In this document: one piece after another, positions 9,173 through 16,043 of the stretch
Position numbering within the stretch: position 1 is the stretch's first letter
Layout of the letters: the number at the start of each line of letters is the position of its first letter
Sequence record: OR449013
Origin: Escherichia phage Mangalyan
DNA: 64,000 nt
Strand: one strand, 5' to 3'
Notes under the pieces: model-generated
What the model was told of the DNA's origin: nothing
Database searches by the model: none
What the model saw: the letters and a program-made list of their open reading frames with translations, nothing else
Position numbers and translations under genes: made by a program

Positions 9173-9451
9173 ATGAGCTGTGAAAAATCTTTTTTCTTTA
9201 TTATTTACGGTAAAGATAACTGCCCACATTGTGTAAGAGCAAAAGAATTTGCAGTCAGTAAGGGTCTGCCTTTTGTATATAAGACACTTGGCGAGGGTTA
9301 CACAAAAGAAGAGCTTATTGAGAAGTGCAGTCCAATCGTACCCAGAACGTTGCCGCAGATCTTCTTAGAAAGTAATCTTGAAAGTGTCCATATAGGCGGT
9401 GCCGACGATTTCATCTCTTTTGTTAAGAATGGTTTTGGAGAGAAAAAGTGA
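9173..9451 (+). CDS. glutaredoxin/thioredoxin-like protein (NrdH/NrdC-like)
   Basis: 92 aa with CPHC redox motif; located between nrdB and nrdD. Confidence 0.6.
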   Translation: MSCEKSFFFIIYGKDNCPHCVRAKEFAVSKGLPFVYKTLGEGYTKEELIEKCSPIVPRTLPQIFLESNLESVHIGGADDFISFVKNGFGEKK

Positions 9452-10308
9452 AAGTTGTAAAACGGGACGGTAGAGAAGAGGTCTATAACGGAATTAAGGT
9501 GATCAAGGCGGCAGAGTCCGCCTTACTTGAGTCTGGACATACTGAAGAAGAAGCTTACCGGATCGCCTGCGCGGTTAATGAAGTTGTTGCTAACACTCTA
9601 CCAACCGACCAGTGCACGATCTCTGTAAAAAATATCCATATCCTTGTTGAAGACGCTCTTATGGATATGGGTTTAAAATGTGCAGCCAGAGAATACATCC
9701 AGTATAGGCAGACAAGAGATAATAATAGAGAGGCAGGTGGAAAACTGCTTGCAGATATTAGTGGCTTCTTGGATCGCACTTGTGATGAATTTACAAAAGA
9801 AAACGCAAATAAGCCTACCAATCATGTACACACTCATCGTGACCTGCTTGCAGGCATCCTTAGCAAACACCTTGCATCAACACAGATCCTGCCAGACCGT
9901 GTCTCAGAAGAGCACAATAGAGGCTTCATCCATGTGCATGATCTTGACTACTTGATCAGTCCGTTAACAAACTGTTGTTTGGTAAATTATCCAGATATGT
10001 TGGAAAACGGATTCAACATTGGTAACGCCCATGTCAGTAAGCCGAAGTCAATAGGGGTTGCAACAACAATCCTTAGCCAAATCTCTAGTGCAGTAGCTAG
10101 TGCTCAATATGGTGGTCAGACTATGAGCCATATTGATCATTATCTGGCACAGTATGCTGAAGCGACCTATGAGAAGAACCTTAAATTTTGCCAGGAACAT
10201 TGGTTGCCAGATGCTGAGACTGTTGCAATGCAAATGACAGATAAAGACGTATTTGACAGCATGCAGACTTTGCTCTATCAAATCAATACGTTAACTTCTG
10301 TCAACGGT
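9448..10308 (+). CDS. nrdD: anaerobic ribonucleotide reductase NrdD, exon 1
   Basis: ATP-cone start MKVVKRDGREEVYNGIKV; frame ends ...LYQINTLTSVNG; last exon base is T, as expected for a group I 5' splice site. Confidence 0.75.
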
Positions 10309-11099
10309 TAACAAACTGGCCGTTGTAAAACTCTCCTAACCTCATAAGAGGGGTCGGTAAATCCGGCTAACGGGGAACGCTAAGGCGAAAGCTATGCCAA
10401 TCCCGTGACTAGTTCTTACAGGAGTTGGAACGGTTGTAACGACTAACGAAAGGCAGAGATGCTTGACAAACATTTCTGAACCAAGTAGTGTAGGGGTTAG
10501 TTGAAATACTAACTTCGAAATGGAGAGGCTCTATGAAAAAGATCATTCTTAATGGTGAAGAATCAAACTATGTGATTGATGAGGTTGGAAACGTATACGG
10601 AAAACGTGGAATGCTACACCCAATATTGTGGGGAGGTTATGGAAAAGGTAAAAAGCATGTTAAACGCCGTTATATGTACTCTTTCAACCACAAAGGTAAA
10701 AAGATTCGAATCCAAACCTCAAGGATTGTTGCCTTGTATTGTTTGCCGGATGTCCCAGAAGACCCTGAAAACTGGGAAGTGAATCATAAAGATGGCAATA
10801 CATTGAATGATCATCCGTCTAACCTAGAGTGGGTTTTGCCGGAAGATAATAAGAGACATGCTTTCCGAACAGGACTTTGTCCAGGTAAGTGCTATAGGAA
10901 AGTGCAGGCATACAAAGGGAAAACCTTGGTGGGTGAATATCCTTCACTCTATGCCTGTGCAAAAGCCTTAAATTTGAACGTAGGTAACGTTCATAGGGCT
11001 ATCGAAGGAAATGCCGAAGGTAAGCATCTCACAATAAAGGGTTATTATCTTATTGAAGTAGAGTAAGAGATAGTCTGGCCCTGTGGAAACACAGGGAGG
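10309..11099 (+). mobile_element. group I intron interrupting nrdD (boundaries +/- a few nt)
   Basis: nrdD reading frame breaks at 10309 and resumes in another frame at ~11100; 5' part 10312-10532 is ORF-free and GC-rich with GNRA-like loops (GCGAAAGC); internal HNH ORF; intron ends in G. Confidence 0.6.
10533..11066 (+). CDS. intron-encoded HNH homing endonuclease
   Basis: 177 aa; HNH block EVNHKDGNTLNDHPSNLEWVLPEDNKRHA; SD GGAGAGG before ATG; lies entirely inside the nrdD interruption. Confidence 0.65.
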   Translation: MKKIILNGEESNYVIDEVGNVYGKRGMLHPILWGGYGKGKKHVKRRYMYSFNHKGKKIRIQTSRIVALYCLPDVPEDPENWEVNHKDGNTLNDHPSNLEWVLPEDNKRHAFRTGLCPGKCYRKVQAYKGKTLVGEYPSLYACAKALNLNVGNVHRAIEGNAEGKHLTIKGYYLIEVE

Positions 11100-12368
11100 A
11101 GACAGCAGACTCCATTCATCACATTGAGTTTAGGACTGGATACCTCGGTCTTTGGTAGAATGATTACCAAAAACTACTTGAAAGTCCACAAAATGGGTCT
11201 TGGTGAAGAACGTATTACACCTGTATTCCCTAAAGTGCTGTTCTTCCTGGAAGAGGGTGTTAACATGAACCCTGGGGATCCTAACTATGATTTGAAACGA
11301 TTAGCTCTGGAATGCTGTGCAGAACGTATCTACCCTGACTTCGTATCTGTACCACTAAATAGAAAAGTGACAGGCTCGACAGATGGCAAAGTAACGAGCA
11401 TGGGTTGCCGGAGTTTTCTTAGCAAATATAATGACTTGGAAACAGGTGAGGAAAAATACCTTGGCAGATTCAACTTGGGTGTTGTTAGCCTTAACCTGCC
11501 AATGATTGCGGCAAAAGCTAAGACGGAAGGTGTTGATTTCTTTGCAGTTCTTGACGAATACTTGGATCTTGCATACGAGGCTCACCTTGTAAGGGTTAAC
11601 CGTCTAAAAGGAACAAAGGCAGGGCAGAACCCCATCATGTGGTGTGAAGGCGCTCTTGCTCGCCTGGATCCTGAAGAAAGTATTGATAAACTCTTCTATG
11701 ACGGGTACGCTTCCATCAGCATTGGGTATATTGGTGTGTATGAAACCTGTCAGATTTTGGGCAGAGAGGGTGACAAGGCTTTAGCTCTTGGAATCCTTCA
11801 GCACATGAGAGATGCTTGTGAGCGATACAAGAAGGAAAGTAGACTAGCGTTTAGCTTGTACGGCACCCCTTCTGAGAGTCTATGCTATAAAGCTGCAACC
11901 TGTCTGGATCGTGAATATCCTGAAGTGTTGAAGCACGAGCATGAATATCTCACCAACAGTTTCCATCAGCCAGTATGGATCAATAGCTCTCCTTTTGATA
12001 AGTGGGCGTATGAGGAAGGTTTTGCTATGATCTCCTCTGGTGGCAACATCGGATATGTAGAGACACCGAATCTGAAAAACAACTTAGATGCTTTAGAGGC
12101 TCTTGTTGACTTCGGGTATAAACACATTATGTATTTTGGTATTAACCAACCTGTGGATAAATGTCTCAAGTGTGGTTTCTCTGGGGAGTTCAGTGCAACA
12201 GCTAAAGGCTTTGTATGCCCAGAGTGTGGAAACCATGAAGAGGGAACGATCAGTGTGATCAGACGTGTGTCTGGATACCTTTCCAGTCCTAACTCCCGTC
12301 CTTATAATAAAGGTAAGCAAGCGGAAGTTATCGAGCGAGTTAAGCACTATGGAAGTTGTAGTTGCTGA
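11100..12368 (+). CDS. nrdD: anaerobic ribonucleotide reductase NrdD, exon 2
   Basis: frame reads RQQTPFITLSLGLDTS... from 11100 (no start codon needed); C-terminal Cys4 CLKCG...CPECG and glycyl-radical motif RVSGYL. Confidence 0.75.
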   Translation, partial: RQQTPFITLSLGLDTSVFGRMITKNYLKVHKMGLGEERITPVFPKVLFFLEEGVNMNPGDPNYDLKRLALECCAERIYPDFVSVPLNRKVTGSTDGKVTSMGCRSFLSKYNDLETGEEKYLGRFNLGVVSLNLPMIAAKAKTEGVDFFAVLDEYLDLAYEAHLVRVNRLKGTKAGQNPIMWCEGALARLDPEESIDKLFYDGYASISIGYIGVYETCQILGREGDKALALGILQHMRDACERYKKESRLAFSLYGTPSESLCYKAATCLDREYPEVLKHEHEYLTNSFHQPVWINSSPFDKWAYEEGFAMISSGGNIGYVETPNLKNNLDALEALVDFGYKHIMYFGINQPVDKCLKCGFSGEFSATAKGFVCPECGNHEEGTISVIRRVSGYLSSPNSRPYNKGKQAEVIERVKHYGSCSC

Positions 12369-12432
12369 TACTTGACAAAAGCCACAAGGATGTGGCACCA
12401 TACAGATGTTTAGGGAAGTTAGGAAACAAGAG

Positions 12433-13566
12433 ATGGCTAAATTATCGACAGAAGAGTTTATAGAGAAGGCGAAAATCATTCACGGTTATAAATACAATTA
12501 CAAGAAAACAGTGTACGTGGATTGCTATGCGAAGGTTTGCATTACCTGTCAAATCCATGGAGATTTTATGCAAGCACCTTGTCAACACTTGCAAGGTCGT
12601 GGTTGTCCTTTTTGTGCAAAACTTTCTCGTGCTACAAAGTGTAATAAAGGTCTTAAATTTGTAGAAAGAGCCAAAGAAATCCATGGAGATAACTATGACT
12701 ACTCTCTCGTATACTACAAGACTTGCAAAGATAAAGTAGAAATAATCTGCAATACTTGTGGAAATCACTTTACACAGACACCTGACAATCATATAAATTT
12801 GAAAAGAGGTTGTCCAGTTTGCAAGGGGTCAAGAATCTCACAAAGCAAAACCAAACCTCATGAAAAGTGGGTTGAGGACATAGAGAAGAAAAATACTTAT
12901 ATTGAAATATTAGAAGAGATCACCACTGGGTGGAATAAAGTATTATGTCGTTGCAAAGTTTGCAACCACGAATGGTCAGCTACGCCTGTTATCCTTAAGC
13001 GTGGTCACGGCTGCCCCGGATGTGGCGGATCTATGAAAAAGACCACTGAAGAGTTTATCCAGGACGCTGTGGCTATCCACGGGAACAAGTATGATTACTC
13101 TAAAGTGAGGTATGTGAATTCACACATCAAGGTTACAATTGTTTGCACAGATCATGGAGATTTCTGTCAATCCCCTACCCAGCATTTAGGAGGGGGAGGG
13201 TGTCCTAAATGCACCAAAAGAGGATTTTTATCCCACGATTGTGGTAAACTTTACATTATGGTTGATGATCCGGAAGTGCCTACATTTATGAAAATAGGTG
13301 TCAGTCATAATGAAAGTAAGCGAAGAGACCAGATACTTAAAAGTGCACAAAGATCTGGAGCTGGTATCTGCGATCTGTACATAGTGAAAACGTTGGAAGG
13401 ATCAACTGAAAACATGCTGGCTGTAGAAAAATCTATGCACAAAGCCTTCAGTAAATATAAAATAAACTTCCCTGTAAAATTTGATGGTAGCACCGAATTC
13501 TTCTACTACAGGCCTGAGGTGTTCAGCACAGTGGAAGCAGCGTACAAAGAGATCTGCGGTAAATGA
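12433..13566 (+). CDS. multi-zinc-ribbon protein with C-terminal T5orf172/GIY-YIG-like domain
   Basis: four tandem ~45-aa modules (IHG.KY.Y ... GCPxC); C-terminal YIMVDD...KIGVS...R...E resembles the GIY-YIG/T5orf172 fold; SD AGGAAA before ATG 12433. Confidence 0.5.
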   Translation: MAKLSTEEFIEKAKIIHGYKYNYKKTVYVDCYAKVCITCQIHGDFMQAPCQHLQGRGCPFCAKLSRATKCNKGLKFVERAKEIHGDNYDYSLVYYKTCKDKVEIICNTCGNHFTQTPDNHINLKRGCPVCKGSRISQSKTKPHEKWVEDIEKKNTYIEILEEITTGWNKVLCRCKVCNHEWSATPVILKRGHGCPGCGGSMKKTTEEFIQDAVAIHGNKYDYSKVRYVNSHIKVTIVCTDHGDFCQSPTQHLGGGGCPKCTKRGFLSHDCGKLYIMVDDPEVPTFMKIGVSHNESKRRDQILKSAQRSGAGICDLYIVKTLEGSTENMLAVEKSMHKAFSKYKINFPVKFDGSTEFFYYRPEVFSTVEAAYKEICGK

Positions 13567-13618
13567 TCGTAGAAAGATACACATATCTTAAACATGCTAT
13601 AAACTAAGGAGGTACAGT

Positions 13619-13735
13619 ATGTCTACAGGCATTTATAAAATTTGCAAGTGTGGTTGTCGTTGCAATCTTCGTTGGTGCAAGGCACTGGACGATTTTATTT
13701 GGCATTGTCCTGAATGCGATGCAGAGTACTTATAA
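13619..13735 (+). CDS. small Cys-rich (zinc-ribbon-like) peptide, 38 aa
   Basis: perfect SD AAGGAGG 7 nt before ATG; 8 Cys in CKCGCRC...CPEC; below the track's 60-aa cutoff. Confidence 0.4.
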   Translation: MSTGIYKICKCGCRCNLRWCKALDDFIWHCPECDAEYL

Positions 13736-13886
13736 GCATAAGGGGTCGAAATGCGGAAATCTATCAAGAAAATCAAGATAAAATTGTTAGCACTGAAGCG
13801 TAAGTATAAAAAGTTATACGGCTTCATCAAATGGACTTTTATAAGTTTATCTTGAATAGAAGCACACCACAGAAGAGAGGTTCCTT

Positions 13887-14123
13887 ATGGTAGGTGTCTG
13901 TGTAAAAGCTAACAGATGGTTTACATTCGGCAAGGATTACGAAATTATCTTTCATTCGGACAGAGCCACAACAGTAGAAAGCGATGATGGGTGCTACTGG
14001 TTCGTTAGTTACCAGGGTGATGGGTATTATAGATCTACTGATTCCAGAGGGGAAGAAGCTGTTTTCTTAGATAGAGCTTATTGTGGGCCTGAATATCCCT
14101 ACCTCAAAGAGGGTAAGGAATGA
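13887..14123 (+). CDS. hypothetical protein
   Basis: 78-aa ORF; stop overlaps nrdG start. Confidence 0.45.
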   Translation: MVGVCVKANRWFTFGKDYEIIFHSDRATTVESDDGCYWFVSYQGDGYYRSTDSRGEEAVFLDRAYCGPEYPYLKEGKE

Positions 14124-14593
14124 ATGTTGTTAATATTATAGAGTGTAGCATGGTTGACGGCCCAGGCATTAGGACAACGGTGTTCTGTTCTGGTTGTCCA
14201 CATCACTGCGTTGGTTGCCAAAACAAAAGTGTTTGGTCACCCGCTAAAGGGGAACCGTTAACAAATGACACAATTGAGAGTATACTTCACTCTATAGAGC
14301 CGAAACATATTACTGGCGTTACATTATGCGGTGGCGAACCTTTAGCGCCTTACAATATCGATGGTATGTACTCGATCATTCTCGCTATCCGTGAACGCTT
14401 CGGCAACACAAAAACTATCTGGGTGTACACAGGGTATTTGTTTGAAGAAGTCCCAGGTTATATTAAAGATAGTGTCGATTACATTATGGATGGTAAGTAC
14501 GAAAAAGATAACCCCACCAAAAAACCATTCAGAGGTAGTGATAACCAAAGAATGTTTAAAAAAGTATCAGGCGGTTGGGTTCAGGTAGACTAG
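14120..14593 (+). CDS. nrdG: anaerobic RNR activating enzyme (radical SAM)
   Basis: 157 aa; CSGCPHHCVGC (Cx3Cx2C radical-SAM cluster); adjacent to nrdD. Confidence 0.75.
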   Translation: MNVVNIIECSMVDGPGIRTTVFCSGCPHHCVGCQNKSVWSPAKGEPLTNDTIESILHSIEPKHITGVTLCGGEPLAPYNIDGMYSIILAIRERFGNTKTIWVYTGYLFEEVPGYIKDSVDYIMDGKYEKDNPTKKPFRGSDNQRMFKKVSGGWVQVD

Positions 14594-14596
14594 CTG

Positions 14597-14626
14597 TTGA
14601 CAAAGCTTTGTTTAGATAGGTATAAT
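14597..14626 (+). promoter_or_regulatory. sigma70-like promoter
   Basis: TTGACA, 18-nt spacer, TATAAT. Confidence 0.6.
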
Positions 14627-14657
14627 TATCGTAAAATGAAAGCAGAGGAGGTGCCAA

Positions 14658-14771
14658 ATGGCTAAAAAAGCCTTGAAGAAGGCGTACAAAAAAGAAATTG
14701 CGCTTGAGCTCAAGAAAAAACACAAGCGTGAAAAGAAACATCATGAGGATGAAGAGGAGCTGCAACAGTGA
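14658..14771 (+). CDS. small highly basic peptide, 37 aa
   Basis: SD GAGGAGG before ATG; MAKKALKKAYKKEIALELKKKHKREKKHH...; stop overlaps next GTG start. Confidence 0.4.
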   Translation: MAKKALKKAYKKEIALELKKKHKREKKHHEDEEELQQ

Positions 14772-15118
14772 CACAAGAACGTATCGATTTGGCTAATAAG
14801 TTTGTAGATCTCATTTTGCCACGGTTAGTTACTCAACATGCAGACGCTATTTCTACTAATCTTGATGGCTTACGCCTAATGCTGAATCGCACAGATGACC
14901 CTCGCATTCGGGCTGATTTAGAAGCCTCTGCCAACAAACTGGAAAAGTTCTTGCAAGTAGATACGCAAGAAGCCTTACACAAGATTATGGTGGAAGGTTT
15001 CTCTAAAGAATTTACCATTAAAGAGCTTAAGGAGCTGATCCACCAAGAAGAGATGAATATCCGAGTTCAGGCTGTTGCAAGCAGCATGGAAGCGGCTATT
15101 GAAAAACTGTTGCAGTAA
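14768..15118 (+). CDS. hypothetical protein
   Basis: 116-aa ORF, GTG start overlapping upstream stop. Confidence 0.45.
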   Translation: MTQERIDLANKFVDLILPRLVTQHADAISTNLDGLRLMLNRTDDPRIRADLEASANKLEKFLQVDTQEALHKIMVEGFSKEFTIKELKELIHQEEMNIRVQAVASSMEAAIEKLLQ

Positions 15119-15945: not shown

Positions 15946-15989
15946 CACAGAAGGGTGGTTATTCCACCCTTAGATATCTAAAACAGTTG

Positions 15990-16018
15990 TTGACAAACAG
16001 GTAAGCTTTAGATATTAT
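15990..16018 (+). promoter_or_regulatory. sigma70-like promoter
   Basis: TTGACA, 17-nt spacer, TATTAT; preceded by a GGGTGG-ttatt-CCACCC hairpin. Confidence 0.55.
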
Positions 16019-16043
16019 TATCGGACAAGGAGAAGGAGATAGT

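Follow-up and report, generated by a model that had tools for sequence, protein, structure and literature searches.

The open reading frame (ORF) at 12433-13566 of a 64,000-nucleotide stretch of Escherichia phage Mangalyan (sequence record OR449013; this whole stretch is referred to below as the window) is most probably a free-standing homing endonuclease gene (HEG), located in the nrdD-nrdG region, whose product belongs to the T5orf172 branch of the GIY-YIG superfamily. We put the probability of this reading at about 0.72. The 377-amino-acid (aa) product consists of four zinc-finger-like modules followed by a C-terminal domain of nuclease type, and the gene is present or absent at a single intergenic site among collinear genomes. 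A preliminary description made from the sequence alone had proposed a homing-type endonuclease here, and the family matches, the conserved Arg and Glu of the nuclease domain and the presence/absence pattern at a fixed site all speak for that proposal. It had also noted a 377-aa ORF right after the intron-containing nrdD, which is correct: the ORF is intact on the plus strand and begins 65 nucleotides (nt) past the stop codon of nrdD exon 2. The class of the gene is an established one, the "T5orf172 HEG with repeated Zn-finger DNA-binding domains" (Barth, Dunham & Seed 2023).

The C-terminal domain is a GIY-YIG-type nuclease domain

In a Pfam search, T5orf172 (PF10544, GIY-YIG clan) matched aa 273-363 with 24.9 bits in the whole protein and with 28.0 bits when the domain was scanned in isolation (cut-off 20), and the isolated domain also matched MUG113 (23.8 bits, cut-off 22.3). 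The whole protein matched PHROG 681 'endonuclease' (E=2.3e-72), while an NCBIfam search with it gave no meaningful match. The preliminary description had read a T5orf172/GIY-YIG-like domain from the motif LYIMV...KIGVS...R...E, which is indeed present and conserved across homologues, and had proposed a family search and a structure prediction as checks. Both came out in its favor: the family search returned T5orf172 together with a treble-clef zinc-finger family for the upstream part, and aa 262-377 modeled alone reached a predicted local distance difference test score (pLDDT) of 93.3 and a predicted template modeling score (pTM) of 0.84. The modeled elements follow the order β-β-α-β-α-(β)-α and form a three-stranded sheet flanked by helices, like solved GIY-YIG domains, and the best matches of the model among solved structures are the GIY-YIG nucleases Slx1, HIGLE and I-TevI. 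At the level of sequence, an hhalign comparison with a single I-TevI sequence gave no match, and when the family profile was run against the PDB as a hidden Markov model (HMM), no GIY-YIG chain came up at E≤1.

Among 21 homologues, L273, G289, E332 and G352 are invariant and Y274, K287, R297, H336 and E355 are at least 90% conserved. R297 lies eight residues past the motif-2 glycine, G289, just as R27 of I-TevI lies eight residues after its motif-2 glycine, G19. The catalytic residues were mapped by sequence and secondary structure, not by superposed coordinates, through Odn (ICP1 gp88, sequence taken from NC_015157) and ICP1 gp122. In this mapping E332 aligns with E180 of Odn, and the E180A variant of Odn shows no cleavage in vitro and no activity in vivo (PMC8263062). 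The Arg and the Glu that Odn requires both have counterparts here (R297 and E332). On the basis of these alignments, Y274, K287, R297, E332 and E355 are the putative active-site set, and by analogy with Odn the domain would be expected to cleave DNA.

Four homologous zinc-finger modules precede the nuclease domain

The preliminary description had reported four repeats of ~45 aa, each ending in GCPxC and carrying conserved His/Cys. There are four modules with these ends (GCPFC at residues 57-61, GCPVC at 126-130, GCPGC at 193-197 and GCPKC at 256-260) and with four candidate zinc ligands in every one of them, but the proposed length was too short: successive GCPxC motifs are 69, 67 and 63 aa apart, so the unit is 62-73 aa (~65 aa). 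The first ligand pair is C-x2-C in modules 2 and 3 and C-x2-H in modules 1 and 4, and the second pair, C-x2-C in each module, lies 14-17 residues beyond the first. The cysteines of module 2 are invariant among homologues, as are C257 and C260 of module 4.

For the quantification of the similarity between modules, local alignments were scored as z-scores against 300 shuffles. The pairs among modules 1, 2 and 4 scored high (z=27.5 for 1-4, 18.6 for 1-2 and 17.2 for 2-4), and the pairs with module 3 scored 7.7 (2-3), 4.9 (1-3) and 2.0 (3-4); because of this weaker internal similarity (z=2-8), module 3 is a divergent subtype. The repeats are homologous and not compositional, the latter being what would have counted against the preliminary description. 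At the DNA level, only degenerate repeats of 14-24 nt remain within the gene, implying that the modules are old duplications and not a recent tandem expansion.

Pfam matched DUF4379 ("probable treble-clef zinc finger") to three stretches of the whole protein (E=1.9e-12, 47.6 bits, cut-off 24.5). Scanned singly against the same family, modules 2 and 3 were above the cut-off (25.8 and 29.5 bits) and module 4 was below it (16.8 bits). Module 1 scanned alone had no match in Pfam, despite which it is kin to modules 2 and 4 (z=18-27). Module 2 also matched DUF723 weakly (E=0.007). Overall, three modules are of the DUF723/DUF4379 type and one is CapR-like.

The AlphaFold model of the whole protein has a mean pLDDT of 86.6 and a pTM of 0.36, the latter suggesting confident domains without a fixed mutual orientation, like beads on a string. 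In each module the model places a helix before a β-hairpin that holds the first ligand pair, with the second pair at the start of a helix (in module 1, the β-hairpin knuckle is C39-x2-H42 and the second pair C58-x2-C61), a predicted layout that corresponds to the treble-clef arrangement. By analogy with CapR, the modules probably bind zinc and the array probably binds DNA.

The preliminary description had called this array unusual, which it is not. In a survey of T5orf172 HEGs, 200 of 229 carry CapR/DUF723/DUF4379 fingers, often several of them as "beads on a string" (PMC10448857), so the architecture found here is the normal one. The family is large, with 7846 proteins at E≤1e-10, arrays that reach ~650 aa and 294 matching viral structures in BFVD at E≤1e-3. 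We noticed that the top-scoring relatives (P0004-P0120) are proteins of 450-660 aa with many more finger modules and no T5orf172 match, that some large finger-array relatives have PF04480 (DUF559/Vsr-like endonuclease) in place of T5orf172, and that PHROG 559 'HNH endonuclease' also matches the finger array. From the PF04480 fusions and the PHROG 559 match, the same reader array is paired with several nuclease types.

The gene is polymorphic at one intergenic site

To place the gene in its genomic setting, we aligned the window with rV5 by blastn; 11105-12397 and 13602-15000 align at 95% identity and nothing aligns between them. The cassette delimited in this way occupies the nrdD-nrdG intergenic region of an rV5-like phage (Vequintavirus) and disrupts neither neighboring gene. 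Its left junction lies directly past the hairpin GCCACAAGGATGTGGC, ~30 nt beyond the nrdD stop codon, and its right junction lies just ahead of the ribosome-binding site of a conserved 38-aa Cys-rich ORF.

When 4 kb around the gene served as a query, 120 phage records matched at 90-99% identity, nearly all from Escherichia vequintaviruses; the "Campylobacter phage" records in this set bear the mark UNVERIFIED and are likewise assigned to Vequintavirus. With an 88-nt probe that spans the empty site, this site was found intact in 92 phage records and its right half alone in ~20. Insert-related DNA was present in 29 vequintavirus records, and at least 80% of the insert was covered in none of them. 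The site is therefore polymorphic for presence and absence among collinear genomes (92 empty vs ~20-29 occupied), and in all eight occupied loci inspected the gene lies at the same position with an intact reading frame. This is the pattern expected of a free-standing HEG, and the gene may be actively mobile, with a putative target at or near this site.

Four metagenome/SRA-assembled contigs, of up to 137.8 kb, encode the exact 377-aa protein amid the same neighboring genes, whereas a search of 50,697 GenBank phage records did not find its four-module mosaic allele. It is a previously undeposited allele of an HEG class that has already been described.

Relatives carry different arrays on the same nuclease domain

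The alleles of WalterGehring and nom (321 aa) have modules 1 and 2 and a divergent module 3 joined directly to the nuclease domain, without module 4, and the allele of JEP1 (311 aa) is without module 1. The alleles of nomine and navn (310 aa), SophiaRose (386 aa) and phiWec189 (333 aa) have different arrays, with ~44%, ~44% and ~50% aa identity, respectively, and a nuclease domain that is similar at the DNA level. Modules 1-2 of the window share 96% DNA identity with WalterGehring/nom, modules 3-4 share 88-96% with JEP1, and the nuclease domain shares 86-91% with WalterGehring/nom. The allele in the window is a mosaic, and in its relatives the finger arrays have been shuffled, lost or swapped on the same nuclease domain.

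For the array half as well as the nuclease half, the ratio of nonsynonymous to synonymous divergence (dN/dS) comes to ~0.15-0.25, indicating purifying selection on the gene. Synonymous divergence (dS) between the HEG alleles is 0.29-1.6, compared with 0.05-0.29 for nrdD, nrdG and phoH in the same genome pairs. Since the former exceeds the latter, the HEG alleles are older than, and uncoupled from, the backbones that carry them.

A proposed homing mechanism and its alternatives

If the gene is a homing endonuclease gene as proposed, the four independently folded ~65-aa zinc modules would act as a sequence-reading array and the C-terminal T5orf172 domain as the cutter. When a relative with an empty nrdD-nrdG spacer infects the same cell, the array would bind a long, asymmetric target, located at or close to the spacer or where the downstream small ORF starts, and the nuclease would break the DNA of the empty genome. 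Recombinational repair from the HEG-carrying genome would then copy the gene, along with variable lengths of flank, into the empty genome, whereas the resident genome would be spared because its site would have been destroyed by the insertion, possibly with the help of substitutions close by. Alleles with different arrays, and presumably different specificities, would arise when the repeated modules recombine with one another.

Several observations weigh against this interpretation. The second motif of the nuclease domain is KIG and not YIG, the second Tyr of GIY-YIG being K287, although Odn is alike in this respect. Blastp similarity to ICP1 proteins is remote (E=0.075 for Odn and 1.2 for gp122), and module 3 matches CapR (PF21817) with E=1e-3 and 19.7 bits, under the gathering cut-off of 24.2. 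Moreover, flank identity in sliding windows is mosaic, with no clean co-conversion gradient centered on the insert.

A different possibility, which we consider unlikely, is that the gene is a domesticated relative of HEGs that no longer homes. It might then help the phage as a nuclease that competes with or excludes co-infecting phages or satellites, as Odn of ICP1 does, or it might control the nrd operon by site-specific DNA binding, in the manner of CapR or of the autorepression by I-TevI. Purifying selection on both halves is consistent with such a role, and so is the position of the gene inside the nrd operon in the same orientation without a convincing promoter or terminator of its own (a scan for both at the gene found nothing above shuffled expectation). 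Co-option of T5orf172 and CapR domains is documented (PMC8263062, PMC8096241, PMC10448857), and PADLOC gave a weak match only, to the candidate defence family PDC-S57 (E=0.002). However, roughly three quarters of the close relatives lack the gene and have an exact empty site, and this fits a selfish insertion better than it does a useful regulator. The catalytic residues are kept in all alleles, and the DNA-binding part is a standard HEG finger array with no acquired satellite domain such as RepA_N. In addition, exclusion of co-infecting relatives and homing would be mechanistically the same event.

It is improbable that the gene is an inactive, decaying HEG remnant that persists because it is neutral. 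HEGs commonly degenerate after fixation, modules have been lost in related alleles, and modules 1 and 4 fall under the Pfam thresholds when scanned alone, all of which would suit a remnant, but the low dN/dS, the reading frame kept in 8/8 alleles, the conservation of all zinc ligands and catalytic residues and the confident structure models argue for a maintained protein, and in the population the gene is nowhere near fixation.

The interruption of nrdD immediately upstream bears on a further alternative. The insert in nrdD contains an ORF for a 177-aa HNH_3 plus I-HmuI-NUMOD-like endonuclease, and an Rfam group I intron match at 10809-11096 is sub-threshold (27.7 bits, gathering cut-off 50). 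Among relatives, 203 carries the intron without the T5orf172 gene, phiWec189 the T5orf172 gene without the intron, and both are missing from rV5 and A6-1; because each occurs without the other, the nrdD insert is independent of the T5orf172 gene. In 'collaborative homing', the T5orf172 enzyme would cut intron-less nrdD and thereby mobilize the intron and itself, which is suggested by its place just downstream of the intron-containing gene and by such arrangements in T7-like phages and cyanophages (cited in PMC10448857). Nevertheless, the intron has an endonuclease ORF of its own, and we rejected this explanation, which is very improbable, on the independent distribution of the two elements. 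We also found that JEP1 and navn have a second nrdD interruption with another HNH ORF.

Finally, the Pfam matches, the repeat z-scores and the structure comparison refute the idea that the repeats merely reflect a Cys/Gly-rich composition and that the C-terminal motif arose by chance in a protein that is no nuclease, leaving it a negligible probability.

Gene start, flanking genes and feature coordinates

An in-frame ATG at 12406, upstream of 12433, would add nine residues and give a 386-aa product. The likely start is nevertheless 12433, because the homologues start at the Met of MxRKLTTEEF in the 377-aa protein and a Shine-Dalgarno-like AGGA stands before it. No paralogue of the gene was found by tblastn in the 64-kb window (best E=0.05-0.1). 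The coordinates of the gene, its domains and the adjoining features are collected in Table 1.

Table 1. Positions of the T5orf172 gene, its parts and adjoining features in the window.
Feature	Position	Strand	Basis or detail
T5orf172 HEG-like coding sequence, complete	12433..13566	+	stop codon 13564-13566; ORF list and translation, Pfam and PHROG matches
Shine-Dalgarno-like AGGA	12421..12424	+	8 nt before ATG 12433; read from sequence
Module 1, aa 1-73, DUF723/DUF4379-type	12433..12651	+	internal alignment; AlphaFold2 secondary structure
Module 2, aa 74-144	12652..12864	+	ligands C106-x2-C109 and C127-x2-C130; DUF4379 above cut-off
Module 3, aa 145-206, CapR-like subtype	12865..13050	+	ligands C174-x2-C177 and C194-x2-C197
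Module 4, aa 207-272, plus GFLSHD linker	13051..13248	+	C238-x2-H241 and C257-x2-C260
T5orf172 (GIY-YIG superfamily) nuclease domain, aa 273-377	13249..13563	+	Pfam, model, conservation
Key residue Y274	13252..13254		
Key residues K287-I-G289	13291..13299		
Key residue R297	13321..13323		
Key residue E332	13426..13428		
Key residue E355	13495..13497		
Insertion cassette, 1204 bp (16 bp in rV5)	12398..13601	+	blastn against rV5 and junction alignments
Hairpin GCCACA-AGGA-TGTGGC	12381..12396	.	perfect 6-bp stem at left insertion boundary
38-aa Cys-rich ORF (MSTGIYKICKCGCRCNLRWCKALDDFIWHCPECDAEYL)	13619..13735	+	ribosome-binding site and first codons adjoin right insertion boundary
nrdD exons	9448..10311 and 11124..12368		
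Insert in nrdD	10312..11123		
ORF in nrdD insert	10533..11066		

The hairpin at the left boundary lies ~13 nt past the nrdD stop codon and is kept in empty sites and in most occupied sites; it is no obvious terminator, because there is no T-run on the plus strand. In alleles of the nomine/navn type, unrelated sequence that includes a T-rich stretch takes the place of the spacer and of the final ~22-37 nt of nrdD (comparison of nomine, L004 2847-3000, with window 12346-12432), and the C-terminus of nrdD therefore differs between HEG alleles.

On the right side, the 38-aa ORF has no Pfam match. It lies between the HEG and nrdG and is mis-annotated as a reductase fragment in several phages. Codon 3 of this ORF is AAA in all three empty-site phages and ACA, TCA, TCG or TCT in all eight occupied ones, in a small sample; judged from these sequences, the start of the ORF is a candidate location of the target site or of polymorphisms that confer immunity.

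Further downstream, nrdG (14120-14593) exists in two allelic types among vequintaviruses, which we compared over window positions 13740-14486. Five phages (JEP1, nom, navn, SophiaRose and phiWec189) lack orf116 (window 13887-14123) and share only ~50% identity with the window/rV5 type over the first ~125 codons of nrdG (~366 nt), and near-identity to the window resumes at ~14486. The diverged 5' block of nrdG accompanies the T5orf172 HEG in 5/5 of these 'type B' phages, and the nrdG/orf116 block may be a large co-converted block or an 'HEG island'. The codon-3 pattern and this diverged block are hints of a target or of co-conversion, from a small sample.

We also noticed an extra gene directly after phoH in SophiaRose (L008 4928-5327) and navn (L007 5289-5785), annotated as a 'GIY-YIG nuclease family protein' in the former and as a hypothetical protein in the latter. 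The position corresponds to ~15950-16040 of the window, where there is no such gene, so the operon may contain another HEG site that is polymorphic.

Implications

The gene reveals no new kind of system, since T5orf172 finger-array HEGs are a phage gene family described in 2021-2023. What it offers is a well-resolved T5orf172 HEG in a heavily sequenced genus of E. coli phages, with exact boundaries, a known empty site and at least five alleles, and rV5 and BASEL phages such as WalterGehring are simple to grow and cross. The locus is thus a convenient system for the questions left over from ICP1, namely the cut sites, the specificity conferred by several fingers and the reach of co-conversion into essential genes such as nrdG. 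As for annotation, genes at this locus that are entered as 'hypothetical protein' should in many cases be renamed 'T5orf172/GIY-YIG homing endonuclease'.

One conserved nuclease domain is found here with at least five different arrays of treble-clef modules (~65 aa each), and the backbones that carry them share 92-99% identity. A speculative and, in our estimate, rather doubtful extension is that the nrdD-nrdG spacer holds a natural allelic series in which modules contribute additively to recognition, so that the enzyme can be re-programmed in an arms race within the locus. Should every module read a constant number of base pairs, the result would be a natural, re-programmable system akin to zinc-finger nucleases. 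Rival alleles would then retarget one another, and the series would allow the rules of DNA recognition in the DUF4379/DUF723/CapR family (>7800 homologues) to be decoded directly.

Comparison with known systems

The only solved structures that contain a DUF4379 module are those of the kinetoplastid mitoribosomal and assembly proteins mS66 and mt-SAF33 (6yxx_E2, 7aor_at, 6sga_Fd, 7ane_at). These are the top Foldseek and HMM matches in the PDB, for the finger fold only (E=3e-4 to 0.07). They have a ribosomal or assembly role in a eukaryotic organelle and are without a nuclease domain, and their similarity suggests either a common origin with the finger family of phage HEGs or the recruitment of that family into trypanosomatid mitoribosomes.

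The GIY-YIG homing endonucleases of T4, I-TevI and the Seg proteins, are modular and spread by co-infection and recombinational repair, and T4 homing enzymes invade nucleotide-metabolism genes (the nrdB and nrdD introns, and mobE between nrdA and nrdB). The catalytic fold and the modular build of the window protein are alike (structural comparison with 1ln0). In I-TevI and the Seg proteins the nuclease is N-terminal, the DNA-binding modules are NUMOD/helix-turn-helix, and the zinc finger of I-TevI is a ruler and not a reader, whereas here the domain order is reversed with the nuclease at the C-terminus, the reader modules are different, and the second Tyr is replaced by Lys.

CapR of the Vibrio cholerae PLE satellite, a single-finger protein, binds DNA in electrophoretic mobility shift assays, in which context Cys-to-Ser variants of its conserved cysteines were tested (PMC8096241). 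Its finger family is that of module 3 (CxxC, then ~17-25 residues, then CxC/CxxC), but CapR is a stand-alone repressor without a nuclease domain, and module 3 scores below the gathering cut-off of the family.

Odn is the only T5orf172 nuclease for which cleavage has been demonstrated (PMC8263062). The window protein shares with it the KxG second motif, the Arg and the catalytic Glu (E180 in Odn, E332 here). Odn, however, reads DNA through a satellite-captured RepA_N domain and destroys the satellite origin, whereas the reader here is a zinc-finger array and the population pattern of the gene is of the homing type.

The same combination of an N-terminal Zn-finger array and a C-terminal T5orf172 domain is found in ICP1 gp53, gp121, gp130, gp165 and gp174 and in the surveyed HEGs. 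The window gene differs from the ICP1 HEGs in that sequence identity is remote (blastp E about 1) and that the host lineage is an E. coli Vequintavirus. In the survey, 33% of T5orf172 HEGs lie in ribonucleotide-reductase neighborhoods, recombination between intragenic repeats leads to in-frame deletions, and domains are shuffled between HEGs (PMC10448857). The gene described here resembles the surveyed HEGs in all these respects: it is free-standing, it lies beside ribonucleotide reductase genes as they often do, and its alleles have gained and lost repeats and shuffled their domains.

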